In this document: in pieces, positions 22,761-63,344 of the stretch
Layout of the letters: each line of letters opens with the position of its first letter
Position numbering within the stretch: position 1 is the first letter of the stretch
IMG/VR virus record: IMGVR_UViG_3300045988_139474
Coordinates: 32,001-96,000 of that record
Strand: one strand, 5' to 3'
DNA from: a virus
DNA: 64,000 bases
Translations under genes and position numbers: made by a program
The notes under the pieces: model-generated
What the model saw: only the letters and a program-made list of their open reading frames with translations
Told to the model about the DNA's origin: nothing
Databases searched by the model: none

Positions 22761-23024
22761 AGACACTCACCCCAATATCCGTGAGACTGCTACAGCCATG
22801 AGAGTGAAATCAGTCATTCATCCTTCTGCTGAGTCTCTCTTCTTACAATCATGAGCCCAAGCAAGGATTCCTCCGACCGAAAACAAGCATACACTGAGAT
22901 TGAAACAAGGACTGTTCTGCTTGCGTTGTGATGATTGAGCAAGCTAGAACTGAAACCAGTCAAGCAGTCATGAATCTTGAGGCGTGAGCTACTGATTTGA
23001 AAACTGAAGCCTGTAGGGAACAGG

Positions 23025-23170
23025 AATCGGAACATAAATACAGGATTTTGGCTAAAAATTTCCCTGATTTATTAGAAACTTATCCACGAAATATACGATT
23101 TCAATGTCATAGATGTGATACAAATAGATAACACACAAGTATATATAGATTATAGAAAGAAAACAGACAC
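23025..23170 (+). repeat. Promoter-bearing repeat module B
   Basis: Same block as module A, with TTATCCACGAAATATACGATTTCAATGTCATAGATGTGATACAAAT. Extended -10 TGATACAAA at 23126-23134. Confidence 0.8.
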
Positions 23171-23310
23171 TGATATTCTTCTGCTGCACACTCACTCAAC
23201 TAAGGAATCAGACGGCCTAAAGACTGAAATCAATCATCATGAAAGATTCTTCTCAATCCTGCTGAAGCATGAAAACAGCCCTGCTGTGTTACCAGAGGGC
23301 TGATGTTTTC
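23141..23310 (+). ncRNA. Candidate ~170-nt non-coding transcript from module B
   Basis: Predicted start about 7 nt after the -10. It ends at the intrinsic terminator 23275-23310. The only ORF (23115-23303) starts inside the promoter and lacks an SD. Confidence 0.4.
23275..23310 (+). terminator. Plus-strand intrinsic terminator
   Basis: CAGCCCTgctgtgttaccagAGGGCTG followed by ATGTTTTCGG. It faces the 3' end of minus-strand gene 23445-23951. Confidence 0.6.
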
Positions 23311-23444
23311 GGCCTGATTAAAATTAAGCCAAAATTCCGCGAAAATTAGCTGGGTCGGGATTCTGCCCAAGTCGTTTACCATTCAAGGTCGCTAAAATCG
23401 AAACTAGACTGCTCTGCGCTTGAATACGGCTGTGAAGCTTAAAA

Positions 23445-23951
23445 TTAGCGACTTAAGAATTCTCTGCTGGAGGCCTGTTTGGCTTCGTCTAGCAACTTGT
23501 ACGCCAATTTTCGGCCTGCTGTACTAATGGCCAGCTTGACGGTCGGTGCGAGATTGGGTTCATATGCTCCGTCCATAGTCTTGATGTAGCAGATTCTGAA
23601 ATTCAACTGTTGATTAGCAGCTGTCTGTCTCAAGATACTTTCAAATGCTGGCGGGGTCATGATTTCATACACCGACAAGACGATTGACCGCAACAACTCT
23701 GCATTCGTCTCATCCAGCCGTACATTCAACAATTCCTGGGGCAACTGGATGTATCTGTCCAAGTCCAGCGGTCGGATACCGCAGGGGATGTTAATCAGAT
23801 TGCTTTCAGGCAACAGCTTGTTGTATTCCTCAATTGATGAAAACAGCTTGGCGGATAGCCTGTTCTGCCAATAGCGTGATGATTTCATGTAGTGCAGCTG
23901 CTCTTCTGAAAGCTCAGCCCATTGTTCCTTGACGGGTCTCAATAACGTCAT
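23445..23951 (-). CDS. Hypothetical protein (168 aa)
   Basis: 4-nt overlap coupling with the upstream gene. No motif recognised. Confidence 0.55.
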   Translation of the reverse strand: MTLLRPVKEQWAELSEEQLHYMKSSRYWQNRLSAKLFSSIEEYNKLLPESNLINIPCGIRPLDLDRYIQLPQELLNVRLDETNAELLRSIVLSVYEIMTPPAFESILRQTAANQQLNFRICYIKTMDGAYEPNLAPTVKLAISTAGRKLAYKLLDEAKQASSREFLSR

Positions 23952-24253
23952 GATTCCTCCCTCCCAAAATTGGGGTGACGCAATCTTCTTGGGACATTGT
24001 ATCTCGGAGCAAACTGAGGGTCACCAACAGCAACAGCCGTCCAGTATCCGTTGCGCTGAACTATCTGGTATTTGCAACCTAGCTCAACATCGCCAAATCG
24101 GCCAGCTAGAAACTCGAATAGCAACTGGTGAGCTTTAGTCATAGCTTGAGGTGTCGTAACGTTAGGAACAGCCGATATAGCCCGATAGCCGTCAAGTAGC
24201 TTGACTTCTGTATCGGGGTCTATCTCAACCGTCATAATCTCGTGAAACAGCAT
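23948..24253 (-). CDS. Hypothetical protein (101 aa)
   Basis: Start trimmed to ATG 24253 preceded by AAGGAG. The track start 24304 overlaps the small ORF below. Confidence 0.5.
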   Translation of the reverse strand: MLFHEIMTVEIDPDTEVKLLDGYRAISAVPNVTTPQAMTKAHQLLFEFLAGRFGDVELGCKYQIVQRNGYWTAVAVGDPQFAPRYNVPRRLRHPNFGREES

Positions 24254-24263
24254 GTACGACTCC

Positions 24264-24428
24264 TTACTGGCGGTTGTGTTGTTTCCATAGTGCAAACATA
24301 TCATCCCATGAACCTAATTCCATGAGCAATACGCTGAATTCAACTGGCTTACCGTCAATCAGGTACATGCCAGGACATGTTCTGTTCAGGTGTTCGTTGA
24401 ATTGGGTTGTTTGATTTGCGTTCATCAT
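24264..24428 (-). CDS. Small protein (54 aa), below the ORF-track size cutoff
   Basis: My translation gives MMNANQTTQFNEHLNRTCPGMYLIDGKPVEFSVLLMELGSWDDMFALWKQHNRQ. AGGAGG SD, and an ATGA overlap with the stop of 24425-24880. Confidence 0.5.
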   Translation of the reverse strand: MMNANQTTQFNEHLNRTCPGMYLIDGKPVEFSVLLMELGSWDDMFALWKQHNRQ

Positions 24429-24880
24429 TTGCCTCCTAAAGATTGAATGGCCTGGTTGAAGTCGATAGCTAGCTGTACGGCCTTAACAACTAGCTCCTTG
24501 TTAGTCATCCTGCTGTACTCACCTGAGGTAACCATGCTATTGAGCAAGACATTAGCCCTTGACTCAACAGACTTGTCAGACGGTAGGATAGCGGTATTGT
24601 AATCAATCTGACTAGCAGCCCAGATAGTCTCAATCTGAGCATGCTTGAAAGAGATAGGCTGGCCTGAATAGCTCTTGCCTGTCTTCTCACGAATCTTGAA
24701 GACACCATAGCAGTAGCAATCATCAATGCTAATCTGATTGACGGCCAGTATGCAGTCTGAACCTGCTAACTGGACGAAGAACCATGCACCGTGACTACAA
24801 GTCATATACTTCCAAGTGCTGAAATCTCTGGCTGCTGTTCCCTCGTCTGGGACAGTCGTGATTCTGTTAACAACTTGCAT
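24425..24880 (-). CDS. Hypothetical protein (151 aa)
   Basis: ORF in a coupled series. No motif recognised. Confidence 0.55.
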   Translation of the reverse strand: MQVVNRITTVPDEGTAARDFSTWKYMTCSHGAWFFVQLAGSDCILAVNQISIDDCYCYGVFKIREKTGKSYSGQPISFKHAQIETIWAASQIDYNTAILPSDKSVESRANVLLNSMVTSGEYSRMTNKELVVKAVQLAIDFNQAIQSLGGK

Positions 24881-24881
24881 T

Positions 24882-25148
24882 TCAGCCTCCTTTCGTCCAG
24901 TTATCCTGTTCTGGATGATATGGAATCTTTTTCCTGAGCGGGCCAGGGGCAGTAGGTTGAGTTGACTTACGCGGCAACTGCTTAACCACTAGGCCAAGAT
25001 GCTTCTGCATTTTATGCATCTGCTCATACAACTCGTCAATTTCCTGACGTTGCTCTCTTACTTGACGGCGCAAGCTTCTCAGCTCAATATCTATCGACTT
25101 CAGGTCAAATTCTAATTCTGACTGTTTCATCTTCAGCCTACCTTTCAA
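24882..25148 (-). CDS. Hypothetical coiled-coil/basic protein (88 aa)
   Basis: ATGA-type overlap with the upstream gene. No motif recognised. Confidence 0.5.
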   Translation of the reverse strand: MKGRLKMKQSELEFDLKSIDIELRSLRRQVREQRQEIDELYEQMHKMQKHLGLVVKQLPRKSTQPTAPGPLRKKIPYHPEQDNWTKGG

Positions 25149-26641
25149 TTAACGCGTTCGTGTATCGTCTTGAATTTTACAATCAGCCCATTATCGGCCT
25201 TGAAATGTCTCGGCTTAATCCATGTCATAGCAGCTGTAGCCAAATTATTGAACAGCAGAATCTCCATGACTACCTTGCCTAGCTCTAGTGTCGCTAAAGC
25301 AAACTGTTTGTCTTTCTCACGCTTCATCTCAATCAGATGAAAGGTCTTTTCGGCCTTTAGCTCTTCATAAATCTCATGCTGCAACTTAGTGCCTGGAACT
25401 TTCGGAGTGCGTTGCAAGGCTTCTTTCAAGTATGATTGAGTCGGTAATGTCGCATAGCCCTCAACCGTGATATTGACACTCGGCACTTCGATATATGGCT
25501 GAGGCTCTGCAAAAGGCTCAGAAACCGTTTTTGGCTTATAGAAGCCGTTAGCGTCAACGCCGTATCCCGACAACTCATAGTATGGCGAAGGCGTTTTGAG
25601 CTTATCCTCGTCTCGTTTTGACAGGATAAATCGGATTACTTCCAATTCTGCTTTTAGTCGGTAGGCGTTCATATAAACCGCTTTGATACCGTCAAAATCA
25701 TTCGGCTTCAAGTCTTCTTGACTGACGATATCAAGCCCGCACAGAGGGATATGTACTTCATCATCACGCACCTTGTACACATACCCATTCTCATCCAGAT
25801 AAGGCAGCAATTCCTTGCTTGTAACCAATGTCGGCATATTCAGTTTGCCGTCTCGGATAATCGACAGATTGCGATAAACACGGACAACATGTTTCTTGCC
25901 GTTAGGTTGAGTAAGGATAGCGTCAGCTGCATACATCAGATTGAGGTTAGCGCGTGAACGATTCGGCACGATTTCAACACGGTACAGTTTGTCTCGGACA
26001 ATATCAACTGTTTCACCCTGCCAGTCGGTCGTTTCGGCCTTAGCTCGCTGAGTTATCACTTTTGACTTGTAGGGGTTCACCAATGCCTTATGCTCAATAA
26101 TAGCAGCCATGAGGTTCATGAGTGTCTTCTTGTTTGAGTAAGCCAGCACTTTATCTTCGCAAGGCTTTTCGGCTTCCTCTTCGCTTTGAGTATCACCCAA
26201 GATAGCTTCAATCGCCTTATCGGGATTCTGCAATGCTTCTGAGCTCAACACGAAATTAGCTAAGTCTTTGCGACGCAGATTGTAGGCGCAAACATTAGCA
26301 GCTGAAACAGGTCTGCGTTTGAAGATAGCAACAGCAATCTTACGGATGACGCTATCAGGCACATCTTTACAATTCATGTAAACAGCTTCAGGCGCACCCA
26401 ACAGGCTTGAGAAAGACTTGCCCTTGTAATTGCGACTGCGGTATTGACGCGGAATCAGAAACAATTTGGCAGTATCTGACTGAGCCAAGTCTTTGAGGTC
26501 AGTAGCAAATTCCATTTCATCTAGGTCAATGCCTGAAATGCTACTGTCTGTTGTTTGCAGTTTGAATCGGGTATCAGCATCCATTAGGACAGCTTCAAAC
26601 CGTACACCTGAAAGCTGTATCAGGAAGAGTGTTGGGTTCAT
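25145..26641 (-). CDS. Hypothetical protein (498 aa)
   Basis: Long ORF. No motif recognised. Confidence 0.6.
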   Translation of the reverse strand: MNPTLFLIQLSGVRFEAVLMDADTRFKLQTTDSSISGIDLDEMEFATDLKDLAQSDTAKLFLIPRQYRSRNYKGKSFSSLLGAPEAVYMNCKDVPDSVIRKIAVAIFKRRPVSAANVCAYNLRRKDLANFVLSSEALQNPDKAIEAILGDTQSEEEAEKPCEDKVLAYSNKKTLMNLMAAIIEHKALVNPYKSKVITQRAKAETTDWQGETVDIVRDKLYRVEIVPNRSRANLNLMYAADAILTQPNGKKHVVRVYRNLSIIRDGKLNMPTLVTSKELLPYLDENGYVYKVRDDEVHIPLCGLDIVSQEDLKPNDFDGIKAVYMNAYRLKAELEVIRFILSKRDEDKLKTPSPYYELSGYGVDANGFYKPKTVSEPFAEPQPYIEVPSVNITVEGYATLPTQSYLKEALQRTPKVPGTKLQHEIYEELKAEKTFHLIEMKREKDKQFALATLELGKVVMEILLFNNLATAAMTWIKPRHFKADNGLIVKFKTIHERVN

Positions 26642-26687
26642 AATTCATCACCTATCTGTCGGGTTGTAGGTTGTTATCTTTCAACAG

Positions 26688-26703
26688 CCAGTGGTAATTT
26701 TTA
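26688..26703 (-). promoter_or_regulatory. Class-2 intergenic motif
   Basis: Minus sense TAAAAATTACCACTGGCTGTTGAAAGATAACAACCTACAAC, 47 nt upstream of start 26641. Confidence 0.45.
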
Positions 26704-26979
26704 AATCAGTCGTTGTTGTCCTGCTTTCAAGTACCAAGTCAGTACTCCTGCAGACACGCAGAGGAAAGACTCAACGGCTCGTTGTTTTGAGAGTGTAGCG
26801 AAGTTAGCAGGGTCGCAGAACATGATTTCAGGCTCATCTGCCTCAGGGTATTTCAGCTTCACAAGAAACAAGTTATCCTCAAGTTCATGTTCAGAAAAGA
26901 CTTCAGTCATTTCAGGTAATGTTTGCTCAACCATCAATTGATGTTTGAAGCGTGGTAGCAGTGTATTGTTCATTCGCAT
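26701..26979 (-). CDS. Hypothetical protein (92 aa)
   Basis: ORF between two class-2 motifs. No motif recognised. Confidence 0.5.
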   Translation of the reverse strand: MRMNNTLLPRFKHQLMVEQTLPEMTEVFSEHELEDNLFLVKLKYPEADEPEIMFCDPANFATLSKQRAVESFLCVSAGVLTWYLKAGQQRLI

Positions 26980-27026
26980 GTTTGTTATTTCCTTGTCTGG
27001 TTATTCATGATTTATAGTCTCAGCAA

Positions 27027-27042
27027 CCAATTATAATTTTTA
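27027..27042 (-). promoter_or_regulatory. Class-2 intergenic motif
   Basis: Minus sense TAAAAATTATAATTGGTTGCTGAG, 48 nt upstream of start 26979, immediately after hairpin 27047-27062. Confidence 0.45.
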
Positions 27043-27198
27043 TCAGCCCTGTCAGCACAGGGTTCAGTCGGTCGGATAGCTGAGGATTGAGATTTCAGTT
27101 TCATGGCTGTTAGTCGATTAAGTGGTGATTGAGGTCTGATTGTGAGGGCTGAGGAATGATTGTTTTCCGTCTAGTTAATATAATATAGAACGTTGTAT
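27043..27198 (-). ncRNA. Candidate ~155-nt non-coding transcript from module C
   Basis: Runs from about 7 nt after the module C -10 (TACCAA, 27205-27210) to the CCCTGtgctgaCAGGG hairpin at 27047-27062. No ORF present. Confidence 0.35.
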
Positions 27199-27325
27199 TT
27201 GGGTTTGGTATCACATCTATGAGTTTGGAATTGGATATTTCGTTGATAACTCGTTGAAATAAAGCAGGAATTTTTAGCCAAAATCTTGGTTTTATGTACG
27301 GAATCCCAACTATTACAAGATTCAG
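27170..27325 (-). repeat. Promoter-bearing repeat module C (most diverged copy)
   Basis: Minus sense GAATCTTGTAATAGTTGGGATTCCGTACATAAAACCAAGATTTTGGCTAAAAATTCC...TTATCAACGAAATATCCAATTCCAAACTCATAGATGTGATACCAAAC. Confidence 0.7.
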
Positions 27326-27350
27326 TTTCCAATTCCTGCTATTGCGTTGC

Positions 27351-28169: not shown

Positions 28170-28256
28170 ACATTTCCTTTCAATTTTGAAAACTGGCTAA
28201 AATCGCCAAAATTAACGCGGTTAGAACGCTGCTTGGGCGAATGCTTGCTCAACTCG

Positions 28257-28640: not shown

Positions 28641-28673
28641 ATTGTCCCTCCTTGAGTCTTGATATCTGTTCAG

Positions 28674-28689
28674 CCAATTCTAATTTTTC
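28674..28689 (-). promoter_or_regulatory. Class-2 intergenic motif
   Basis: Minus sense GAAAAATTAGAATTGGCTGAACAGATATCAAG, 34 nt upstream of start 28640. Confidence 0.45.
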
Positions 28690-29044
28690 AGTCAGTTCAG
28701 TCTCAGGTTTCGTGTTAACATGACTGATTGAGAGCTCAGTCAGCAGAAGGATGTATGATTGTTTTCATCTCTAGGCTGACCAATCATCAGTCAGCCAGAC
28801 GGTCTAAGCTAGGGATTTTCGGCTCATGACTGTTAGTTTCCTTGTTCTTCTGATTCTAGCCTGCTACTCACACACGCAGGCAGAACAGTCTCATGTTTTT
28901 CATTCTCATGGTTTGAGATTCTGTTTTCAATTTCATGATTTCAGCCTCATGGCTTGAGATTCTGTTTTCAATTTCATGATTTCAGTCTCATGGCTGTTTG
29001 TTAGATTGAGGATTTCTATGCATGACTGTTCTCAAGTCTCAAAG

Positions 29045-29210
29045 ATTAATTTATTAGTTATATAATACCTGTGGTGTTGATATTGTATCACATCTATGAC
29101 ATTGAAATCGTATATTTCGTGGATAACTCGTTGTAACTCAATAGAAATTTTTAGACAAAATCTTGGACTTATGTACGGAATCTTGGCGGGTACAGAATCT
29201 AGATTGCAGT
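29045..29210 (-). repeat. Promoter-bearing repeat module D
   Basis: Minus sense ...TTATCCACGAAATATACGATTTCAATGTCATAGATGTGATACAATATCAACACCACAGGTATTATATAAC. TACAAT at 29082-29087. Confidence 0.8.
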
Positions 29211-29424
29211 TTCTGTATCCCAGCAGCAAGATTCATCAGTCAATCATTGATTTCCCTCTAATTGCTCAAGCAAGGATTTCAGTTTGTTCCCTTCCTGCTG
29301 ACTCAGGCTCCATACGGTCGGAGAAAGCCTCAGCAGTCTCAAATTTCTGTTTTTCATGCTCATGGCTGTAAAGTCTCAATTCAGGGCTTGGTTGAGTGTT
29401 GAAGAGGGTGTCAGGGTTGTTATT

Positions 29425-29582
29425 CTTCTATTAGATAATATATAATCTGTGGTTGTGTATTTGTATCACATCTATGACATTGAAATCGTATATTTCGTGG
29501 ATAAGTTTCTAATAAATCAGGGGAATTTTTAGACAAAATCCTGTCTTTATGTTCCGATTCCCAGCCGTTACAAGATTCATAT
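29425..29582 (-). repeat. Promoter-bearing repeat module E
   Basis: Minus sense GAATCTTGTAACGGCTGGGAATCGGAACATAAAGACAGGATTTTGTCTAAAAATTCC...TTATCCACGAAATATACGATTTCAATGTCATAGATGTGATACAAAT. Confidence 0.8.
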
Positions 29583-29595
29583 TGCAAATCAGCAA

Positions 29596-29630
29596 TAAAA
29601 AAGCCCTGCTAGCATGAAACTAACAGGGCT
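29596..29630 (-). terminator. Intrinsic terminator after gene 29653-29943
   Basis: Minus sense AGCCCTGttagtttcatgctagCAGGGCT followed by TTTTTTATTG. Confidence 0.7.
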
Positions 29631-29652
29631 GGGGTTGGGGTATGACTGTAGG

Positions 29653-29943: not shown

Positions 29944-29959
29944 GCTTACGCTCCGTTGA

Positions 29960-31105
29960 TTATTCAGGTTTACCTTCTACAACTTTACCAGAGTGTACAC
30001 CCAATACGGTATAAGCGCAAGTGCGGGCTTTCTGGCCGTTGTAGTCGGTCGGTACAGACACGAAGTCCTCAGGAGCAACAGACACCTCAAGGATTACGCT
30101 GTCTCGGCCACTGCCATATTGCTCAGCGTATTCCAACGCGCCGACATGTAAGCCATGAGAACAGGTCTGATCTGGGTCATCGTTGACTTCTTCACGCGGC
30201 ATGGTAATAGTTGCGCCGATTTTGTTCTTAATCTTGTTTGAGTACAAGTCATACAAGTCTGGTCGTACAGCCTTGTAAGCCAAGACTGAGCCGTCTTCAC
30301 GCAATTTGATACAGTTATGCTCCAAGAACATGAACAGGGTCTCAAACACGCGTTTGCTAGGGTTCTTCGCCAGACGGTTGAAGAAGGCAATCACTCGGTC
30401 GGAATCCTCAGGCTGAGAAGCCAGTACAGGTTTGATAGTGCTGTAAACTTCTTCAGGGACTTTCTTGTCTTGAATATACAATACGCCGTCTTTTACAACC
30501 CAGCCATCAATTCCTAAGCTGTCCGCAATTTCAGCGACTGTAGCGGATTCAAAGTAAACAGCCAATTGCTCAGGTTTGAAGTTTTCACTAGCAACCAATT
30601 CTTCAATCTCTTTGAATGATGGTTCAGCAGTCGTAAAGACTTTAGTGGCGATGTCTGAGCCTAATTCACGGAACAGGTACACGGTTGAGGTGAACATGCT
30701 GTAGGAATATTTCGGCTTTGGTGCGGCCTTTTTAGCCTTAGATTTTGCCTTCGGTTTTGCTTTAGATTTGGGCGCGGATTTGTCCTTGGTATTCCCTACA
30801 GAAGCCGTATTTTTGGCCTCAGAAGCTGAACGTTTTGTTGGGGCTTTACCAGCCACTTTTTTCGATTTAGTTGATTTTCGGGCTTTTGTAGGGCGGTCTG
30901 CTTTCGGTTTGTCGGGTGCTGGGGTATCAGCTGTTTCAGGGTTTTGTCGGGCTAACTCGGCATAACGGCGCAGGGAGCGGTCTGAAACGCCAGACTGCTC
31001 AACAAATTCTTTCTTGGTACCAGCTTCGACAGCCGCAATGTAATCACGGCCAAGCTGGATGCGTTGTTCAGTTGTTAATTTCATGGTGTTTTGTCCTTTG
31101 ATCAA
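29960..31105 (-). CDS. rIIB: rIIB-like protein with inserted Lys/Ala/Pro-rich segment
   Basis: N-terminal HTH-like EFVEQSGVSDRSLRRY. C-terminal NDDPDQTCSHGLHVGALEYAEQYGSGRDSVILEVSVAPEDFVSVPTDYNGQKARTCAY parallels T4 rIIB DDDTQTCSRGLHV...VHPRDVVSIPIDYNDAKMRTCQY (from memory). Lies next to rIIA. Confidence 0.7.
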   Translation of the reverse strand: MIKGQNTMKLTTEQRIQLGRDYIAAVEAGTKKEFVEQSGVSDRSLRRYAELARQNPETADTPAPDKPKADRPTKARKSTKSKKVAGKAPTKRSASEAKNTASVGNTKDKSAPKSKAKPKAKSKAKKAAPKPKYSYSMFTSTVYLFRELGSDIATKVFTTAEPSFKEIEELVASENFKPEQLAVYFESATVAEIADSLGIDGWVVKDGVLYIQDKKVPEEVYSTIKPVLASQPEDSDRVIAFFNRLAKNPSKRVFETLFMFLEHNCIKLREDGSVLAYKAVRPDLYDLYSNKIKNKIGATITMPREEVNDDPDQTCSHGLHVGALEYAEQYGSGRDSVILEVSVAPEDFVSVPTDYNGQKARTCAYTVLGVHSGKVVEGKPE

Positions 31106-31446: not shown

Positions 31447-33375
31447 TGCTTTCTTAGTGACTTCTAAGCCGTGTTTGTCCATGTAGGTGTTGAAGCTTTC
31501 GGGCAGGTGTAGTCGGAGGACATTTTCAGGCTTCTTCACGTATTCTTTCAGCCATTCGGTCGCTTCAGCTACTGTTTTCTCAAAGTCGAAGCCAATCAAT
31601 TCGTCACGCATCGCAGTATGGTTTAGGCCGTCTGAATAGCAAGTCAGCATGAATTTGCTTCGCAGCAGAATGCTAAGATTGCCACGGATATGCCAAACAT
31701 CAATAGGCAGCTCAGGGACTAACTTCAGTAGCAGGTCTCCTGCATAGAAGCCTTTTGATTTTACAAACTCACGGTACTCGTTTGCATAAGGCTTCAAGTC
31801 AATATCCCGCAGATGTTTACCACCAATCTTAATCAGGGCTTCATGCATAGTCTTAGGGAATTCAATTTGAGTGAATCCCAAGTCTTTCAGCACTCTAGCT
31901 TTATCCCAGTCATATCTCGACATCTGCTTAGTTTCAGACGGCGCAAAGAAGAAAAAGCGTTTTGTGTCTCGGATGTACTCTGACCTGTTATTGCCGCAGT
32001 AGATTCGATTATTACGAATTTCAGCCACATAATCGGGCTTCGTCTCAGGCTTTAGTAAGGAACGGAACGCGCGCAATTCTTTCACGGCCTCGTCTTGCAG
32101 GACAACTTTCATCTCTGCAAAATCCTTCAACTCATTCCAATCTTCAGAAGTGCCCATGAGCAAGGTATCGTTTGCCCATACCGCACGAAAGCGTTTGAGG
32201 TCAGTCGATTTGGTGATTTTCTCGTTCAAGATGAAGATAGTGTCGCAGCCGTTTGCAACCTTACGCACCCATCTTTTTACAGTCATCTGGTTCACCTTTT
32301 CTTGAGATGAGTCGGTACAGATTTTCACGTTAGGCACTTGCATGCCTCCGCCCACGATTTCGGGTACATTGTAGATGCTCAACTCAAGTACAGAAGCAGC
32401 AGCTTCAATCGGCTTCTTGCCTTGAGATAGTCTTTCAATTTCTTCTGCAATAGCCTTATCAACGCGCGTCAGATACTCTTTCAGACGGCTTTGAGTAGTA
32501 GCATCTTCAGAGATTTCCTCACGGCCTGCGGTCAGGTCTAATTGACCGATAGGTACAAGGATGTTTATGCGGGCATTGATTCGTTTCAGATACTTGAATT
32601 CATCAAAAGCAGCCCATTTCAAAGGATACTCAACACCGCCGATGATAATGTAAATGCTATTGTGACTACCGTGATGGGACAGCGCATAGCCTTTGTCTTT
32701 CATTTCAGCGATAAGCTCGGAATTATCCTTAGCAAGCTCAAATTCTTCTTTCATTGAAATGCCGTTGTTCTCGACAATATGACGGAATTTGATAGGGCAT
32801 TCTGCAAACGGAACAGCATTCTTGCGGTTATCAAATTTCAAGACATCGTCAGCCTTAACAGGCACGGATACTTTCACACCATTCGGTTTGTCGGTCTTGT
32901 TTTTAGCCACAATAGTCAGAGTAGGAACACCATTCTCACCGATTGCGCAGATACCGATTACCTCAACGCCGTCTTTACGGCTCGTGATTGTAAATGCGTC
33001 AGTATAGCTGAATGGGCTTTTTGAGCCTAAGCCATAACCGCCAATCAATTCGTTGCTCTGGGTCTTGTTGCTTGAGAAGTAGGAAGTGTAAACCTCAAAC
33101 AATTCTGTTTCGGAAAGGCCTGTACCAAAATCTTCCACTTCAAAGTTCAAATAGTGTCGGGTCGGAATCGTAACAATGATAGGCTCTTTAGTGCCTGCTA
33201 CTTTATGTGAATCGACAGCATTGCTAATCAATTCGCGGATGATTGATGCGATTTTGTCCTTGTATAAGTTTGAGGACAGGATTTTGAAAGCCTTTGCGCT
33301 AGTAGCAATTGTAAATTCACCTACTTTGCCTGCAACAGTGTTGCTCTTCATTTGGTTAGTTTGAACTGGAATCAT
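31438..33375 (-). CDS. rIIA: rIIA-like protein with N-terminal GHKL ATPase domain
   Basis: [39 protein letters not shown] and [34 protein letters not shown] parallel T4 rIIA ([64 protein letters not shown], from memory). Confidence 0.85.
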   Translation of the reverse strand: [645 protein letters not shown]

Positions 33376-34372: not shown

Positions 34373-34373
34373 G

Positions 34374-55780: not shown

Positions 55781-55820
55781 TCATAATACACAAAGAACGA
55801 AGAAACCGAAAAGCGCATAT
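55781..55820 (-). promoter_or_regulatory. Class-1 conserved promoter motif, copy f
   Basis: Minus sense ATATGCGCTTTTCGGTTTCTTCGTTCTTTGTGTATTATGA, about 70 nt upstream of the HU start. Confidence 0.55.
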
Positions 55821-55870
55821 TTCGGAAAATATTTTTAATTTTCGGCTAATTCTTTGTTTTATATCAAAAC

Positions 55871-56881
55871 TTAGTTTGAAATGAAGCTTTTGAGCAAAGC
55901 CATAGCATGCTGATTTTCAGTATTAGCAAGCTGGGAGGCTTTCGTGAGATTACCGTCAGCTGCGGCCTTCTCAAGTGTCTCATTCAGCAATGTATTGAAG
56001 CTTTCATGAGTTGTATCCAAAGCATTACTCATCAATCTGATAACGTCTGTTGCATTAGCATCAAACATGATTGTTTCGGCTATGGTTGAATAAACTCGGT
56101 ATTCTTCACCTAACTGGTTGCCTTGGTCCAGATACATCATAGCTCGGCAGGCCGATTCGTCTAATGCAGGAACAATCCTGTTATACACATTCCGCAGGGA
56201 GCGGTATTGCGTCAGCAGTAGCAAAGCATTGATGTCCTTGATAGACGTCAGAAGAATGAAGATGTCAGGATAGTCTTGGCGCAAGTAGTACAAGAACAGC
56301 ACCCTTTGCGCGGTTGAGGTCATCTTATCAAAATGTCTGAATTTGACTTCTTGTTCCATGTTGATTCCGTTGTATTGTAGCAGCCAGTAGATGTAGTGCC
56401 TATCTCCATCAGAGTACAGGCCGTCTAAAAGCTTGTATGTGCGTATGAAGCTATACATCAATAGCCTGAGGTGAGCTGGTGTGTCTTTCATCAAGTCCTC
56501 AAACATGAAGTCAATAGCAATCTTGTTAATGCTGGATGGCTCGGAATATTCAGGAATGTCGGCCAAGACGGAATAAGAGATAGTGGCTGTTTGGAAATGT
56601 ATGCCCTCCTGCTCAATCAAGTCGTACAGGAATTCCAGTGTAAGCTCGAAGTTTTCCTCAGCCATCTTGGTCTGAACAACAGTCAAAGAGATAGTTGAAG
56701 CTGAATCCAAATCCCCGCCAGTCATCTCATAAGAGTTTTTCAGCGCACGGCTTACAAGATAAGTTGAGATGACCAACAGTCTAGGCAAATCAAGCGGTTC
56801 TTTTCCCGATAGGTTGAACTCAGCCACTAGGTCAGGCGAAGACATTGATTGATAATGGTTGACATAAAATTCCAGATTCAT
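55871..56881 (-). CDS. Hypothetical protein (336 aa)
   Basis: Long ORF. No motif recognised. Confidence 0.6.
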   Translation of the reverse strand: MNLEFYVNHYQSMSSPDLVAEFNLSGKEPLDLPRLLVISTYLVSRALKNSYEMTGGDLDSASTISLTVVQTKMAEENFELTLEFLYDLIEQEGIHFQTATISYSVLADIPEYSEPSSINKIAIDFMFEDLMKDTPAHLRLLMYSFIRTYKLLDGLYSDGDRHYIYWLLQYNGINMEQEVKFRHFDKMTSTAQRVLFLYYLRQDYPDIFILLTSIKDINALLLLTQYRSLRNVYNRIVPALDESACRAMMYLDQGNQLGEEYRVYSTIAETIMFDANATDVIRLMSNALDTTHESFNTLLNETLEKAAADGNLTKASQLANTENQHAMALLKSFISN

Positions 56882-57496: not shown

Positions 57497-58764
57497 GAAT
57501 TTCCTTTGGCGATTGAGCCCTTATACATAGCCAACTCTGCTTGAGTAATGCTAAGCATTCGGCCTGTTGGGGTCATACGGATAGCTTGAGTGATATCAGA
57601 CTGGCCACGACGCATTTTGGCGATATTCATCATACCAATCTTATGATTGCCTGGGTTTCTAACCTTACCAATGGTAATCATGATATCAACGGTATGCTGT
57701 TTGCGTGAGGATTCGCCAGCGGAATCTAAGCCCAGAAGCTCCTCACCCCACAAGTGGGATTTCGGCTGAGAAGCAATCATAACCACACGCGCCTTAGCAC
57801 CTGTTGGTCGGGCAATTTCGGTTGCGCGCTCATAAATCTCACCGCCTGTATGATACATATTGTCAGGGTCAGAGTTGTCAGCCAAGTTTGAGTCATAGTC
57901 AATTACAACCATATCATACTTGTCTGGTTCTTCCTCCACCAAGTTTTGAATTTCGGCTGAAGTCAGCTTCTTACTAGGCACCAACACCAAATCAATATTC
58001 TCAACGGCCTTTTTAACAGCATCAGTATAGTAGGCAGCTGGGTTCAGAATCACCTCGCTGTACGGCTTATCCAAGACTGACGATGAGATACGCGTGATGA
58101 AGTCAAAGCGTAACAAGTCACCCAAAGCAATATACAACACCCGATAGCCAGCCATTGAAGCATGGACTGACTCTTGAATCATAGCAGCCGTCTTACCTAA
58201 GCCAGGGACACCCACGACCATAACAACGCTGCCCGGCAGGTATCCACCGAAAGCAGAAGCATTCTTAACAGCGTCAAAGGAAGTCGGCAAGATACGGTCA
58301 AGTGTACCCAATTCCTCCTCAACCACTTTTGAGGCATCCAAAGATTTCAGCTGAATCACGTCAGTGGCTGGCGACAATTCTTTCGGAATCTCGCTAATCA
58401 AATCAACCATTCGGTCGATATTCTGACCTTCTGAAGTTACAATGTCGGCGATTCGTTCACGCTTGTAATAGTGAAACATGCCTGACGCCATAGCCCTGAC
58501 TTGAGGCTCGGAGTTACAGGCACGGATGTTACTCGCAATCTTAATGAAAGTTTCCAGTTCAGCTGGTACCAATTTATTTGCTAGGACGGCTCGTGTCGAT
58601 TCTGGCTCCCACTTACTGAGGTCAAAATTCGATTCCTTCATGAGCGTTTTTGCAACGTCCGTTTTCCATGGGAACGTCTTTACAATGCCTCGCGTCATCC
58701 GACTCATCATCGGGTTGAACAGCGAAGCCAGAAAGTTCATTTCTGAGTTCAATTCCATACTCAA
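57493..58764 (-). CDS. RecA-fold ATPase, DnaB/T4 gp41-like replicative helicase (candidate)
   Basis: Walker A GVPGLGKTA, Walker B MVVIDYDS. 423 aa. Adjacent to other replisome genes. Confidence 0.5.
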   Translation of the reverse strand: MSMELNSEMNFLASLFNPMMSRMTRGIVKTFPWKTDVAKTLMKESNFDLSKWEPESTRAVLANKLVPAELETFIKIASNIRACNSEPQVRAMASGMFHYYKRERIADIVTSEGQNIDRMVDLISEIPKELSPATDVIQLKSLDASKVVEEELGTLDRILPTSFDAVKNASAFGGYLPGSVVMVVGVPGLGKTAAMIQESVHASMAGYRVLYIALGDLLRFDFITRISSSVLDKPYSEVILNPAAYYTDAVKKAVENIDLVLVPSKKLTSAEIQNLVEEEPDKYDMVVIDYDSNLADNSDPDNMYHTGGEIYERATEIARPTGAKARVVMIASQPKSHLWGEELLGLDSAGESSRKQHTVDIMITIGKVRNPGNHKIGMMNIAKMRRGQSDITQAIRMTPTGRMLSITQAELAMYKGSIAKGNS

Positions 58765-60239
58765 ATGTCCTTAGTTTGTTGTGTTTTCAAGATGAAGTGG
58801 TCTTTCAACATCTGCATTTTATGCCTCATCTGACGGTTCATTACGCCGTTATGCTTATCATACAGCAAGGCGCATGTTAACTCGGTCGTCCTAGCTGCAC
58901 GGCCTACAGGCTGTACTAAGCCTTTGAACGATACGCTAGTGATGGGGATAACGCTGTTGATGTTAGGAATATCCAAGCCCTCAGTACCCACTTGGTTTGC
59001 TATCAACACTCTAAACGCTTTTTGTGCAGCCAAAGCTTTCAGCTGCTCCAATGTCATAGATACCTCGCCAACAGGCGATAACTGAACTTGGGCGGACAAA
59101 AAGACTGTCCGAATGCCCATAAGGTTCAAAGCATTACAGATAGCAGTACCAGTCTCAATTGAAGTCGTCTCAGGTATAAACACGATACCGTCTGGCATAT
59201 CCCCAATAATCCTAGCTAACGTCAATGGGAAGTTAGGGTGCTTCAGGGTACAAGCTCCGATGAACTGAGGTGTTGGAACATCTTTATCAAGGTTTTCGGC
59301 CACTACTTGCTCATACTCAGCCTTGCTGATAATTTCCGCATTGTAGCTTACCAAATTGATAGGCACTTGTAGCTTCACATGGATAAGAGATTCCCCGAAA
59401 TATTCCAGCATTGCGAAGTTTTGCTGAGTCAGCTGTTTTCTCAATACTAGGTCAGGTGTCACCTCATGTCCAGACTTAGCGTCAGCTGAGCCAGTGAAGC
59501 CATACAGGAAGTCTGGATTACACGCCTTGATAACCTGTTTCCAAGTATCAGCTGAGGCGTGGTGAGCCTCGTCAGCGATTAGAAGGCCGACATTCGACAA
59601 TTCATCCCAGCGTTCAGGCTTGGTAGCAGCTGACTTGACGAAGCCTGTTGGGTGAATCAATTTCACTCGGCTGGTATCAACGTCATACTGCTTCAATCGC
59701 AGTTCCAATTCCTTCAGCAGGTTCTTGGTAAATGAAATCAGCACAACGTCTTTGTCGTGCTGTTCCAAGTATGATTCTACCAGCGCGGAAATGATAGTTG
59801 CTTTACCATAACCAACAGCCAGAGACACAATGCCTGAACTCTTCTCTTTCAATAGCGCAGCCGTCTGTAACTGAACTTGGTCGTATCCCATGTCCTTCTT
59901 AGGATGAGACGCAAAGATGCCCAGCCAGCGTTGTGTTATCTCAATTCCTTTGTCGTCAGTCTTTTCACCAACAACCTTATAGGGCATGCCGTTAGCAGAC
60001 AACACATATTTCAGGGTGCTCAATAGGCCTTTGAAGACATACAGGCATTTATCCTTCAATCTGCTGTCGCGCTTGAGGTAAGCTACATCTTCATCTGCGA
60101 CAGTCCATTTCTTGAGGTGATACAGATACCGTCTGTTTTGTTCCCTCTGGGTGAATATACGCTCGAAGCTATTATATTCCCTGTCTGTCTCAAACTCGAT
60201 TCTAAGCTGGCCGTTTTTCAGACACTCAACTGTTATCAT
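58761..60239 (-). CDS. SF2 DEAH-box helicase (UvsW/RecG-like class)
   Basis: AVGYGKAT (deviant Walker A), LIADEAHHAS, and C-terminal helicase motifs GTEGLDIP and QPVGRAAR. Confidence 0.65.
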   Translation of the reverse strand: MITVECLKNGQLRIEFETDREYNSFERIFTQREQNRRYLYHLKKWTVADEDVAYLKRDSRLKDKCLYVFKGLLSTLKYVLSANGMPYKVVGEKTDDKGIEITQRWLGIFASHPKKDMGYDQVQLQTAALLKEKSSGIVSLAVGYGKATIISALVESYLEQHDKDVVLISFTKNLLKELELRLKQYDVDTSRVKLIHPTGFVKSAATKPERWDELSNVGLLIADEAHHASADTWKQVIKACNPDFLYGFTGSADAKSGHEVTPDLVLRKQLTQQNFAMLEYFGESLIHVKLQVPINLVSYNAEIISKAEYEQVVAENLDKDVPTPQFIGACTLKHPNFPLTLARIIGDMPDGIVFIPETTSIETGTAICNALNLMGIRTVFLSAQVQLSPVGEVSMTLEQLKALAAQKAFRVLIANQVGTEGLDIPNINSVIPITSVSFKGLVQPVGRAARTTELTCALLYDKHNGVMNRQMRHKMQMLKDHFILKTQQTKDI

Positions 60240-62080
60240 AGCATGTCTCCATATGTGATATCATACTTGTGTTCTCGGTTCTTCGTCAGGCTGCGAATCA
60301 GGCCTTTCTGTACCTTACCTTCAACGCGGAAACCATCATACTCATATGATGCGATTTTCAAGCCTTCGGCTCGTAAGCCCTCGATTGTATGATGGATGAA
60401 ATCCAATTCTTTGCCTTGGCAGTACCATACCAACAGTTTGCTATGAGAATTGAAGATTTCAGAATCCTCTGTAATCACACTTACACCGTTGAAATACATC
60501 TTCTTGCCTGTAAAGCCTGTTACAACTTGACCGTTTTCAAAGATAGCCTCTTGGATGAACTTAGCTCGTTGAGTCGGAGCATCTTGACCCCAAACACGTG
60601 TTCTGCGTTTGATGTAGTCAATTGCGTGAGTATGGATTGCTTCGGATACTCTGCCCCAGTAGTTCACGATACTGTCCCAAACTCTGTCGGCTTGTTCTGC
60701 GGAGTCAGTTGCTTCCCAGATGCGGGTGTAAACTGATGACGTGGCTTTATCTTCCAAGCTTGCGCCCATGAAGATTGCATTGGTACAGTCTTTAAACAAC
60801 TGATACTCCACACCGCACAAAGCTGCGATAACACGTTTGTCTTCCAAGTAGTCATCAATCAGCTCAGTTACTGTTCTGCCTCGTTGGTTGTCTTTAACAC
60901 TAACGAATTGGCCATTTTCATCAAACTTGCGTTTCACTTGATAGGCTCGGAAAGCGGTTTTTCTCAACAGCATTGGGTAGGCTGATTTCATGTCCACTTT
61001 GGTTGCTTTAGCAAACAGGTGAGATTTCAGACGGCCTTTGAGTAAGGTCACACTTGAATTGTAAACTCGTCCATAAGCAGTAACAGTCACATCGTCTGCG
61101 TTGAAGACTTGCAATTTGGTAACATCCGCCTTGACTTTAACAGTCAACGGATTCACTTTCAGACGTTTGATAGCATCAATATCGCCCAAGTTGATATCAG
61201 GAATGCTGTTATCAATCTCAATCTCAGTAAATTGGCCTAAGGCTTCTACCAATTCTTGTTGTTTTCTGAAGCCCTCAGCAGTCAGTACAACACCGTCTTT
61301 GATTTGGCTCAGATGGAACTCGGGTTTGCGGTTTGCATACTCAGTTTCCATATAAACAACTTCAAGATTGTTTGCTTTCCAGATAGCTTTTCGGCTTCTT
61401 GGAGATTCATACACGCGTAAGACTTCTTGAATTGCTTTCCACATGAACTCTACAGGCAGAGCAAGCGCAGCAGGCTTAGCCTCGAATTTCTTGTTGTAGC
61501 GTTCAGTCAAGATGTCTGCATAATATGGGCTGATATGGTCTTCAGCATAAGTGCCCAGGAACAGCGCCAATGAACCCGCAGCCCATTTACAATTGCGGGA
61601 TACCTCATCAGTCGGAGACTGACCGCGACCAGTCAGTACAACACCATCTTCGTCAATCAGGGTTGCACCGTTCAGGCCACCAGCTTGAGCTTGTTGGTTA
61701 GCTCGGTGACCGAAAGATACCAGCCAGTGTTCTTTGTCGAACTGGGCTTGAGTGATTACTCGTTTCAGGCCGTCTATCGTCAAATTGGCCAGGAGTACAG
61801 ACAGAGGTGTTTTTGAGTTCAATTTCAGGGTTTTCACACCTTGTTTGATTGCGGATTCAGGCGTGTCCGCATAAACAACTTGAAAATCTGTTCTTGTATC
61901 AATGTAGCCTTGGATTGTCTCACCCAGAGTCACTTTCACTCTACGCATTATCGATTGAGGTAGCATGTTAACCAAGTCAACAATGCTAAACGCAGTATTT
62001 TGAGCCGTTGCGTCGTCAGGTCGGGCGGTGACCTTTGCGGCTTTGAATTCAACATAATTGTTGTGTTTAGCGGTTGACAT
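60236..62080 (-). CDS. Hypothetical protein (614 aa)
   Basis: Long ORF. Only loose polymerase-like words were seen (see rejected list). Confidence 0.6.
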   Translation of the reverse strand: MSTAKHNNYVEFKAAKVTARPDDATAQNTAFSIVDLVNMLPQSIMRRVKVTLGETIQGYIDTRTDFQVVYADTPESAIKQGVKTLKLNSKTPLSVLLANLTIDGLKRVITQAQFDKEHWLVSFGHRANQQAQAGGLNGATLIDEDGVVLTGRGQSPTDEVSRNCKWAAGSLALFLGTYAEDHISPYYADILTERYNKKFEAKPAALALPVEFMWKAIQEVLRVYESPRSRKAIWKANNLEVVYMETEYANRKPEFHLSQIKDGVVLTAEGFRKQQELVEALGQFTEIEIDNSIPDINLGDIDAIKRLKVNPLTVKVKADVTKLQVFNADDVTVTAYGRVYNSSVTLLKGRLKSHLFAKATKVDMKSAYPMLLRKTAFRAYQVKRKFDENGQFVSVKDNQRGRTVTELIDDYLEDKRVIAALCGVEYQLFKDCTNAIFMGASLEDKATSSVYTRIWEATDSAEQADRVWDSIVNYWGRVSEAIHTHAIDYIKRRTRVWGQDAPTQRAKFIQEAIFENGQVVTGFTGKKMYFNGVSVITEDSEIFNSHSKLLVWYCQGKELDFIHHTIEGLRAEGLKIASYEYDGFRVEGKVQKGLIRSLTKNREHKYDITYGDML

Positions 62081-62250
62081 GATTGTCCTTTCACGATTGA
62101 GAGGTTATTATATCGAAATTTGCTAGCAAAATCGAATGTGCCTCGCCACTGGAATATTGTCTAAGCCAAGCTCCTAGACAAAATTGTAAGTCATTGATTC
62201 TGTTCAGAAGAAAGTTTCAGGCCTTTCGTCTTTCTTCTCGCTTGGGGTGT

Positions 62251-62290
62251 TCACAATACACAAAGAACGGTAGGATGTAAAAGCGCATTT
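62251..62290 (-). promoter_or_regulatory. Class-1 conserved promoter motif, copy g
   Basis: Minus sense AAATGCGCTTTTACATCCTACCGTTCTTTGTGTATTGTGA, about 165 nt upstream of start 62080. Confidence 0.55.
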
Positions 62291-62368
62291 TCTTTAAAAT
62301 AATTTCGACTTTTTCGATAACTCGTTGTTTTTACTAAGAAGAAAGTTTAAAATATTTTCGATTTTCTT

Positions 62369-62394
62369 TCCCTGCTGGGGATTAAGGTCAGGGA
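62369..62394 (-). other. CCCTG/CAGGG hairpin closing the module-F spacer
   Basis: Minus sense TCCCTGaccttaatccccagCAGGGA, immediately before the A/T-rich block of class-1 copy g. No U-tract. Confidence 0.35.
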
Positions 62395-62799
62395 TTGAGG
62401 GAAATTTCAAGCTTCAATCTTCAGGCCTCAAGCTTTCGGCTCGATTCCTCTTGTGATTGAGGGTTATACAGGCTCAAGCCTCGCTCAGGCAGAAGTTTCA
62501 TGTTTCAACAGGTTTGAGGAGGATTCATGACTGATTCCTTCTTATATTTCCACTCTTGCTTGACCACATAGCAGAGCCTTTCATGTTTCAAGTCTCATGT
62601 TTGATTGAGGTAGCAGGGTAATGAATGATTGTTTCATCTCTAGCCTGCTACACCACACAAGCAGGCAGACGGTTTAAGCTAGGATTTCACTCAACATCAG
62701 GGTTGAGAATTGAAGATTTCAGCCTCATGGCTTGAGATTTAGGATTCATGATTGTTGAGGGATTGAGAGGGTTTATGATTCATGTTTCAACACTCAATA

Positions 62800-62955
62800 G
62801 TAGATTATAAGATATATAATACCTGAGGTTGATATTGTATCACATCTATGACATTGAAATCGTATATTTCGTGACTAACTTCTTATTTTCGCAAGGGAAT
62901 TTTTAGCCAAAATCCTGTATTTATGTACGGAATCCCAATAGTTACAAGATTCAGC
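62800..62955 (-). repeat. Promoter-bearing repeat module F
   Basis: Minus sense GAATCTTGTAACTATTGGGATTCCGTACATAAATACAGGATTTTGGCTAAAAATTCC...GTCACGAAATATACGATTTCAATGTCATAGATGTGATACAATATCAACCTCAGGTATTATATATC. Confidence 0.8.
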
Positions 62956-63344
62956 ATTCAGCTTCTGTATCCCTGTCAACAGATTTCACCAGTGTTGATT
63001 GATTTCGCCTTTTAGCTTTCTATCCTCTGCTTGACACTCACCCAGACGGTCGGATTTCAGTCAGTCATTACTCATGCTTCAGCAGGGTTGAGTAGGATTC
63101 ATGATTGTTACCCCTTCTTCTGCTGACTCAGGCTACAGGCCGTCTAGTTTCATTGCTTCAGCAGTGTTGATAAAGACTGATTCTGTTCCATCTCTAGCTT
63201 GCTACGCTCACACGCAAGCAGAGGGTTTCTTATCTCATGTTTCAGCATCATGATTCTCAAATTTCACGATTTCATTCTCATGGCTGATTGAGGATTGAGA
63301 GTGAATGACTGATTCCTGTTCAACAGCAGATATTAAGTCGGTAT

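Follow-up and report, generated by a model that had tools for sequence, protein, structure and literature searches.

A recurring bulged hairpin with a covarying stem in gene-free units headed by a promoter-like module in an uncultured viral genome

Hairpin copies in the window

We analysed a 64,000-nt stretch of viral DNA (positions 32,001 to 96,000 of IMG/VR record IMGVR_UViG_3300045988_139474; hereafter the window), in which the minus strand carries all substantial open reading frames (ORFs). Seven copies of a promoter-like module of ~140 bp are spread over four non-coding stretches (22276-23444, 26980-27350, 28641-29652 and 62081-~63620), and each module precedes 110-420 nt without an ORF. 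A small bulged stem-loop of 30-33 nt recurs in these module-headed units and is the subject of this study; the ORF-free units that hold its five strong copies measure ~200-450 nt. The window contains five strong copies and two decayed ones (M and U denote the modules and units listed below; bit scores are those of the covariance model):

H1, 22916-22948, plus strand: TCT GCTTGC, 14-nt loop, GCAAGC T AGA; unit U1; 49.4 bits; RNA fold -15.2 kcal/mol, z -3.9
H2, 28855-28884, minus strand: TCT GCCTGC ... GCAGGC T AGA; unit U4, right after a 41-nt tandem repeat; 49.5 bits; fold -15.1 kcal/mol
H3, 28770-28799, minus strand: TCT GGCTGAC ... GTCAGCC T AGA; unit U4; 44 bits; fold -17.8 kcal/mol, z -4.8
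H4, 62639-62669, minus strand: stem GCCTGCT:AGCAGGC; unit U6; 50.9 bits
H5, 63193-63222, minus strand: stem GCTTGC:GCAAGC; unit U5; 52.1 bits
Decayed copy, 62550-62579, minus strand: 5' arm partly deleted; 16.2 bits
Probable second decayed copy, 63024-63046, minus strand: TCTG-GGTGAGTGT-CAAGC-AGAGG, loop and 3' arm retained, 5' arm gone; found by eye, below detection by the covariance model

The copies share a 3-bp TCT:AGA base, a one-nucleotide bulge, a variable upper stem of 6-7 bp and a GT-rich loop of about 8-13 nt containing TGTGA. All five strong copies had been claimed in the initial annotation and could be read directly in the sequence; the third starts at 28770, not at 28768. A loose pattern in which only the invariant bases were fixed found these five and one chance match (0.07 expected from shuffles), and the covariance model, run over the whole window with filters off, returned precisely the five at 44-52 bits, followed by the decayed copy at 16 bits. 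RNA folds of the copies match the drawn structure (-14 to -18 kcal/mol, z -2.2 to -4.8), and the corresponding DNA folds reach -8 to -9 kcal/mol (z -3.4 to -4.4). At the site of the decayed copy at 62550-62579, two related loci (L004 and L025) carry an intact GCTTGAC:GTCAAGC hairpin. H3 lies ~130 nt upstream of the start of a DUF4326 gene.

The outer TCT/AGA with a bulged T, described earlier as conserved, is present in all five window copies, but the bulge is an A in ~44% of the copies in relatives. The flank GATGAAA(A)CAATCAT, likewise reported as conserved, follows the copies at 28770 and 62639 only; the copy at 63193 has GATGGAACAGAATCAG instead, and the flanks at 22916 and 28855 are unrelated. 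The 3' flanks read AGAGATGAAAAC, AGAATC or AGAACTG (as RNA, AGAGAUGAAAAC or AGAAUC). In ~40% of copies the 5' base reads CCGTCTG and continues into the stem with no GAA. The base was considered as a copy of the Neisseria DNA uptake sequence 10-mer GCCGTCTGAA and does not amount to it; true uptake-sequence copies are found elsewhere in the window.

Covariation in the stem

An alignment of 48 distinct copies from the window and its relatives was built without reference to pairing. The TCT:AGA base is near-invariant and the bulge is T or A. Stem cells are paired in 98.6% of cases compared to 90.9% in shuffles, and 33 cells are doubly changed compared to 9.9 ± 3.2 (0/500 shuffles). Three inner-stem pairs are constant and three switch Watson-Crick type: C:G 43, G:C 4 and A:U 1 at the first; C:G 27, U:A 20 and C·A 1 at the second; C:G 38, A:U 6, G:C 2 and A·G 2 at the third. 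An optional seventh pair is U:A, C:G or G·A. The rarer stem versions GACTGGC, GCTTGAC, GCCTGG and GCTTGGC all pair, shifting the partner columns abolishes pairing, and RNAalifold arrived independently at the identical structure. The proposal that stem changes preserve base pairs, made from five copies, thus agrees with the larger alignment, in which substitutions are mostly compensated.

Because the copies are related and recombining, we also used a tree-aware, R-scape-like null in which parsimony substitutions were re-placed randomly on a neighbour-joining tree (300 replicates). Pair 10:32 ranked top of 861 column pairs (E=0.03) and, when the nine proposed pairs alone were considered, the varying pairs reached E=0.0003, 0.006 and 0.016; these values come from a short alignment and a tree drawn from the same columns, and gene conversion can shift both arms jointly. 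The concern that the copies might be recent duplicates with too few changes is met in part: the tree-aware null supports covariation, but the copies recombine and, being paralogues and orthologues of one another, offer few independent events.

The surroundings of the stem vary more freely. Loops and flanks diverge with the arms still paired, flanks past ~15 nt are unconserved, and the base, the bulge position and the loop UGUGA are kept in all stem versions. In the leader of the DUF4326 gene (start 28640), compared with four relatives, the flanks CGTCTG...CTAGAG(A/T)TGAAAACAATCA are kept around the H3 position, while the stem is of the GGCTGAC class in the window and two relatives (AGCTGAC in L013) and GCCTGCT in the other two. 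Hairpins at most 130 nt apart never have identical stems (0/12, 3.5 expected). A need for independent folding fits this difference between neighbours, and avoidance of direct-repeat deletion fits it equally.

A peptide-coding function was rejected. Loops range from 8 to 13 nt, copies differ by a 1-nt indel in the 3' flank and upstream start codons are not conserved, which excludes a conserved frame. Together with the covariation and the tree-aware null, this bears out the earlier claim that selection acts on the fold, as RNA or as a cruciform, rather than on a peptide.

Promoter-like modules and the units behind them

The seven modules were located by nhmmer and alignments:

M1, 22606-22751, plus strand: ends ...CATAGATGTGATACA and TATTATATA; nhmmer 128.6 bits; GTGATA-17-TATTAT
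M2, 23010-23154, plus strand
M3, 29431-29574, minus strand
M4, 29051-29195, minus strand: GTGATA-18-TATTAT
M5, 63362-63504, minus strand
M6, 62804-62948, minus strand: GTGATA-16-TATTAT
M7, 27182-27319, minus strand: divergent; nhmmer 85 bits

The units behind them, and the hairpin that closes the first array, are as follows:

U1, 22752-23009, plus strand: ORF-free A-rich spacer with H1, oriented opposite to the surrounding genes
U2, 23155-23271, plus strand: short spacer without an intact hairpin; TTCTGCTGC and ACACTCAC give a 5' arm and then an inverted loop
U3, 29196-29430, minus strand: hairpin-free spacer
U4, 28641-29050, minus strand: spacer and leader with H2 and H3, up to the DUF4326 start codon (28640); minimum free energy (MFE) and centroid folds keep both hairpins
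U5, 62949-63361, minus strand: spacer with H5
U6, 62385-62803, minus strand: spacer with H4 and a decayed copy, followed by a second promoter-like repeat type and then a 614-aa gene
U7, 26982-27181, minus strand: downstream of M7, no hairpin
Bidirectional terminator-like hairpin, 23272-23310: CAGCCCT...AGGGCTG, either strand having T runs; marks the end of both the M1-M2 array and the convergent gene block; read by eye

The module ends in ...CACGAAATATACGATTTCAATGTCATAGATGTGATACA, ~16 nt and TATTATATA, and an AT-rich TATA stretch lies 3' of each copy. Its hexamers (GTGATA-16/18-TATTAT) are sigma-70-like with a 9/12 match, a score that some shuffled sequences also reach. The best evidence for the module as a promoter comes from two related loci (L005 1656-1800 and L026 ~2430-2520), because there it stands 51-56 nt upstream of a Shine-Dalgarno sequence and the ATG of a gene for a 118-aa gp25-like baseplate protein. 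From these features we take the module to be a probable active promoter, and in relatives it may also drive a late structural gene. An antisense promoter in the module (ATCACA-18-TATATT) was discarded, its -10 hexamer varying among modules, and a relationship to the Correia element was discarded because the likeness is limited to the non-conserved part of the module.

M3-M4 and M5-M6 are co-directed with the genes and end at gene starts. M1-M2 is opposed to them and ends at the hairpin at 23272-23310, so this array leads into no gene. A terminator scan of 22250-23460 did not list that hairpin; the fold, cut at 23300, pairs the stem at the right place and misses the full hairpin and the plus-strand T run. 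A plus-strand ORF begins at 63734 and extends past the end of the window (64000), and the region around M5-M6 (region 3) is therefore a divergent intergenic region between opposed gene blocks.

Family-wide, the units carry 200-700 nt of A-rich sequence made of short recurring words, with few T runs. No ORF in them exceeds 63 codons, and stop codons are frequent (TGA ~3.7-fold enriched). The sense strand is strongly polar: CATGAG occurs 13 times and its reverse complement 0 times, TGAAA 34 and 0 times, CCC 134 times against 49 for GGG, TTT 52 times against 119 expected, and A makes up 33-35%. In whole-unit folds the hairpins persist in the MFE and centroid structures, and the units are otherwise not unusually structured (z -2.3 and -0.3).

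Several repeats are nested in the units. The tandem repeat at 28886-28995 (minus strand; 41 nt, 2.4 copies, 92% matches), just upstream of H2, is itself composed of a ~14-nt word AAATCATGAGACTG/AAAUCAUGAGACUG (7.7 copies, 66% matches) that lies beside hairpins; in relatives one copy is missing. The best-conserved segment of the module, GATTTCAATGTCATAGATGT, and the spacer word that recurs most often, ACAGCCATGAGACTGAAATC, which follows 80-110 nt downstream, are 71-80% complementary (22693-22712/22792-22811, 29090-29109/28978-28997 and 63399-63432/63253-63286), so that in three units the presumed start of transcription is enclosed by an inverted repeat. Different units carry the word CCTTCTGCTGACTCAG and its reverse complement CCTGAGTCAGCAGRAAGG, and likewise CAGACGGCC and GGCCGTCTG (28735-28746 and 29295-29306; 63110-63135; 22815-22840). 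As words are found in both orientations, the units are mosaics. The intact hairpin has a single orientation, the sole exception seen being the partial inverted copy in U2. At 23170-23200 in that unit, ACACTCAC is the reverse complement of the usual loop GTGAGTGT and the 3' arm is absent, while relatives are intact here; this looks like a loop inversion or a decayed copy.

Two further observations concern the same regions. A second promoter-like repeat, AAAATCGAAAATATTTT ... GCGCTTTT ... TTCTTTGTGTATTGTGA with TTTACA-17-TATTGT, distinct from the module, stands directly upstream of genes on the minus strand (22337-22440, 22470-22545, 55781-55882 and 62187-62380). Directly upstream of the M3-M4 array, at 29960-31105 (minus strand), a gene encodes a 381-aa protein without a Pfam match, in which a long lysine/alanine/proline-rich tract comes after a helix-turn-helix-like N-terminus; it may bind nucleic acid.

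Copies in related phages

When viral and metagenome collections were scanned for the core of the module, 28 related-phage loci (~240 kb) were recovered, which share 72-98% identity with the window, none being an exact match. The hairpin copies numbered 56 with a sequence-only profile, and the covariance model found 67 strong ones (5 in the window and 62 in relatives). All copies that share a locus with a module (54/54) lie 70-250 nt downstream of it in the orientation of the module, also in arrays opposed to the neighbouring genes. Up to three hairpins occur per unit, and some of the arrays that hold them lead to no gene.

In relatives as many as five units follow one another in tandem, spaced ~320-520 nt apart (~810 in one case) and gene-free over more than 1.5 kb. 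In region 1 (22600-23300) the window has two units, L013 four and L006 five; in region 3 (62400-63500) the window, L004 and L007 have two and L025 one. Such differences are as expected from recombination between modules.

In two pattern scans of IMG/VR, true copies were found solely in contigs of this phage group. A pattern scan of 185,579 bacterial and archaeal genomes returned no true copy and 14 unrelated single matches, mostly in coding sequence, which rules out a host-derived element.

Gene content and host

PHROG and Pfam scans of ~60 window proteins identified DNA polymerase, helicases, primase, ribonucleotide reductase, topoisomerase II subunits, an SbcCD-like nuclease, an RIIA-like protein and a cluster of nucleotide-metabolism enzymes. 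Among cultured phages the best match is to Ralstonia phage RP13, with only 42% amino-acid identity in a helicase, and blastn of the window's non-coding DNA against cultured phages gave no match. On this gene content and this distance from cultured phages, the window appears to be a portion of a large, uncultured lytic (virulent) phage.

The Neisseria DNA uptake sequence GCCGTCTGAA occurs six times in the window (3432, 5351, 31627, 31933, 32480 and 61026; 0.11 expected) and 22 times in the 240 kb of relatives, while those of the Pasteurellaceae show no enrichment (one match in the window and none in relatives). The enrichment suggests a Neisseria-like host. Two of the related viral contigs have sample identifiers of a form that we take to be that of the Human Microbiome Project, and the probable host is a Neisseria-like oral bacterium. 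To our knowledge, few or no virulent phages of the Neisseria-like group have been described. According to a 2022 screen (PMC8868155), no virulent phage active on N. gonorrhoeae had ever been found.

The 9-mer AGGCCGTCT, bases 1-9 of the Neisseria AG-type uptake sequence with the final GAA mostly absent, is present 18 times in the window (0.24 expected). Fourteen of the 18 sites are on the plus strand (4214, 6307, 9507, 10472, 15245, 27396, 28282, 31625, 34458, 39953, 47940, 56418, 61767 and 63137), where they read AGACGGCCT in gene sense and spread over all three codon frames. This distribution is that of a polar signal at the nucleotide level.

Elsewhere in the window, genes at 10437-14337 and 20647-21330 (minus strand) encode thymidylate-kinase-like, dATP-triphosphohydrolase-like and thymidylate-synthase-like (397 aa) proteins, a dCTP deaminase and a MazG-like pyrophosphohydrolase, a combination suggestive of a modified DNA base. 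Small unassigned ORFs surround a single tRNA-Met (CAT) gene at 19858-19935 (minus strand).

Known elements compared with the hairpin

At the gathering threshold, Rfam 15 has one match in the window, the tRNA-Met at 19861-19935. At E<=10, the two main arrays gave chance-level matches, none of them centred on the hairpin and none to a CRISPR-DR family at the hairpins. An intrinsic terminator was rejected: no copy is followed by a U tract, and the terminator scan called no hairpin copy but did call an array-edge terminator at 29602-29630. RNase III sites need ~20 bp of near-continuous duplex, whereas the stem here has 9-10 bp including the bulge. A mimic of a CRISPR repeat was also rejected, as the local-alignment scores against Neisseria type I-F and II-C repeats (sequences from PMC3374615) and a type I-C repeat were reached by 87/200, 188/200 and 10/200 shuffles respectively, though the tested repeats may not be those of the host.

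An H-type pseudoknot between loop and 3' flank (AUGAUUG with CAAUCAU) can be drawn by eye in H3 but is not maintained across the copies. A larger conserved structure around the hairpin was set aside on the unconserved outer flanks and the ordinary stability of whole units. Integron attC sites have R''/R' core sites (RYYYAAC ... GTTRRRY), extrahelical bases, a cassette ORF and an IntI integrase; the hairpin has a TCT...AGA base and comes with no cassette ORF, and the ~60 window proteins gave no integrase. GC skew has no inflection at the arrays and gives no origin signal.

Interpretation

We tentatively favour the hairpin as a cis-acting RNA element, a site for protein recognition or processing in module-driven non-coding transcripts, and give this reading somewhat less than an even chance. 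The module would transcribe the unit, and the hairpin would act in the RNA as a discrete stem-loop amid weakly structured sequence. Its parts would be a UCU:AGA base, a one-base bulge, an upper stem of 6-7 bp that is free in sequence, and a loop with UGUGA. A protein would read the invariant base, the bulge and the loop motif, leaving the stem free to covary, because an invariant base, bulge and loop with a covarying stem is the usual signature of protein-read sites. Candidate readers would be an endoribonuclease, a stabilising factor or a lambda nut/boxB-type antitermination factor acting on long leaders. We infer RNA as the functional molecule, and protein binding likewise, from the position and orientation relative to the module, the strand polarity, the weakly structured context, and the UGUGA loop and bulge position, the last two being typical of RNA hairpins that proteins recognise.

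Several observations weigh against this RNA element. G·U pairs occur in 0/288 inner-stem cells, and the two single-sided transitions produce C·A and A·C, which the opposite strand would read as G·U. Independent events are few (~6 double and 3 single-sided inner-stem changes), and gene conversion may move pairs of arms. The promoter match is weak (9/12) and leaves the long conserved upstream part of the module unaccounted for. Duplication of whole units could alone explain the coupling of orientation. U2, U3 and U7 are hairpin-free and two copies are decaying, so the element is dispensable in any one unit. The scans of the ~60 window proteins recognised no RNA-binding protein, RNase, transposase, reverse transcriptase or Cas protein, many small ORFs having no family match. 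The absence of G·U suits a DNA hairpin or the other strand about equally well as RNA, and the numbers are too small to decide between RNA and DNA.

The hairpin might instead act in single-stranded DNA, folding on a displaced or non-template strand while transcription, R-loop formation, replication or recombination is under way. There it could be a recombination or replication signal, such as a T4 oriF/oriG-type origin of promoter plus unwinding element, or a site of unit gain and loss. We regard this reading as unlikely, though as the strongest of the rivals. The strictly Watson-Crick pairing, the significant stability of the DNA fold and the shifts in unit number between close relatives (one or two in region 3; two, four or five in region 1) speak for it, as do the DNA-like occurrence of unit words in both orientations with module-spacer complementarity, the AT-rich TATA stretch after each module, and an RNA free of U runs that would give stable hybrids. 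Loops of 8-13 nt, on the other hand, disfavour cruciform extrusion from duplex DNA, the orientation is set by the module and not by the genome strand and so does not track replication direction, no transposase, integrase or HUH nuclease was seen among the window proteins, GC skew is flat at the arrays, and the conserved loop motif and polar word usage are more transcript-like. More doubtful still is the idea that the hairpin has no function of its own and is a palindrome inherited in duplicating and recombining cassettes, as in the shuffling of promoter-early stem-loop (PeSL) cassettes, its apparent covariation going back to a small number of ancestral alleles that duplication and gene conversion would have spread. 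Two alleles do dominate (GCCTGC in 27 copies and GCTTGC in 20), the number of pairs with double changes (3) is within the range of shuffles (2.1 ± 0.7; 137/500), decayed copies and hairpin-free units are present, and units are gained and lost. However, at least six Watson-Crick stem versions stand against three single-sided inner-stem changes, the arms stay paired where loops and flanks diverge, and the tree-aware null rejects independence at the varying pairs. Moreover, both major alleles occur in both flank contexts, neighbouring hairpins always differ, and base, bulge position and UGUGA are common to all stem versions.

Two further readings keep the hairpin in RNA. The hairpin could be bait in a self-promoted decoy or sponge RNA directed against a host system, as a mimic of a CRISPR repeat, a pseudo-antitoxin or a sponge for an RNA-binding protein. 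Stand-alone ORF-free arrays that are opposed to genes and closed by a terminator (region 1; up to five units in relatives), a copy number that differs between close relatives in the manner of an arms race, the many repeats of the ~14-nt word AAAUCAUGAGACUG beside hairpins, and a hairpin followed by (A/U)UGAAAAC, loosely like CRISPR repeats ending in AUUGAAAC, are in its favour. Yet the hairpin has no significant likeness to the tested Neisseria I-F and II-C repeats or a I-C repeat, no Rfam CRISPR-DR match at E<=10 and no occurrence in the 185,579 cellular genomes, and its stems vary where known repeat mimics copy the host repeat closely. We consider this bait role improbable. Somewhat less so, but still rather unlikely, is the broader conjecture that the module-spacer units are fast-evolving, self-promoted non-coding decoys or sponges against a host factor (a defence nuclease or RNA-binding protein), in which the UGUGA hairpin would be the bait and AAAUCAUGAGACUG would provide auxiliary sites. 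Least credible of all is a terminator or attenuator that insulates successive promoters. PeSL cassettes do join a repeated promoter to a terminating stem-loop (PMC2839356), and the hairpins here lie between successive modules, but they lack a U tract (the flanks are AGAGAUGAAAAC or AGAAUC) and are omitted by the scan that calls the real terminator at 29602-29630. T runs are avoided on the sense strand, as would suit read-through better than termination, and the hairpin lies 70-250 nt from the promoter, not within it.

If the hairpin is the RNA signal that we favour, it would be a new phage RNA motif outside Rfam. The architecture also stands out, with up to five promoter-headed, gene-free units of strongly polar composition in an apparent large virulent phage of a Neisseria-like host. 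If the partner of the hairpin were identified, it would become clear how phages of this group control, process or weaponise their non-coding transcripts. As a mere by-product of cassette shuffling, the hairpin would be of local interest only.

Comparison with known systems

Mosaic intergenic repeats are known from enterobacteria (REP/BIME) and from Neisseria (NIME and Correia elements) (PMC5039591). They resemble the units described here in their arrays of short words in either orientation, in imperfect palindromes with conserved flanking bases and in the promoters that some of them carry, but similarity at the sequence level was not established, cellular genomes lack the hairpin and no RAYT-type transposase was seen. 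REP/RAYT and IS200/IS605 hairpins are imperfect palindromes with a conserved flanking tetranucleotide, associated with a Y1/HUH transposase. The present hairpin has a conserved base and bulge, and among the ~60 window proteins no transposase family was found. RNA anti-CRISPRs and solitary repeat units closely copy the CRISPR repeat of the host (Camara-Wilpert et al. 2023, PMC10651486). They too are small promoter-driven non-coding hairpin RNAs from phage intergenic regions, but the hairpin here is unlike the tested Neisseria repeats and the Rfam CRISPR-DR models.

Among genomic architectures already described, the PeSL cassette of T4-like phages, with its sigma-70-type early promoter, comes closest (Arbiol et al. 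2010, PMC2839356; Comeau et al. 2014, PMC4122927). Both systems have a repeated intergenic cassette of ~100 bp with promoter-like features and stem-loops in a large lytic myovirus-like genome, and in both the cassettes appear to recombine, close relatives here differing by gain or loss of whole units. The PeSL stem-loop, however, lies in or beside the promoter, has G/C tracts and terminates transcription, whereas the hairpin described here follows the module at 70-250 nt, lacks a U tract and keeps a conserved loop. Small ORFs (ORFans) in hyperplastic regions are flanked by PeSLs, while the present units are ORF-free and form arrays of four or five without a gene; the module, in turn, has a weak promoter match and ~90 bp of extra conserved upstream sequence.

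The nearest working analogies are the boxB of the lambda nut site and, in T7-like phages, the processing hairpins located after tandem early promoters. The lambda nut site consists of a boxA (CGCTCTTA-like) and a boxB with a 5-bp stem and a 5-nt GNRA-like loop, boxB lying within the Rho-loading region of tR1. It shares with the present element a small conserved hairpin 100-250 nt past a phage promoter, in unstructured RNA with more C runs than G runs and ahead of long one-directional gene blocks. The loop here is longer (8-13 nt), there are up to three copies per unit, and some arrays lead to no gene. No boxA-like sequence was found in any unit, and no N-like arginine-rich antiterminator was recognised among the window proteins, many small ORFs having no family match. 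In the early region of T7-type phages, an RNase III processing hairpin comes after the tandem strong promoters A1-A3. Both arrangements have paralogous promoters in tandem, then a long non-coding leader and a conserved hairpin ahead of the first gene, but the stem here is 9-10 bp and entire units, including the hairpin, are repeated. Set beside these systems, the hairpin is a conserved nucleic-acid signal that is new in detail and familiar in kind, and the unusual part is the promoter-headed, gene-free arrays in which it lies.

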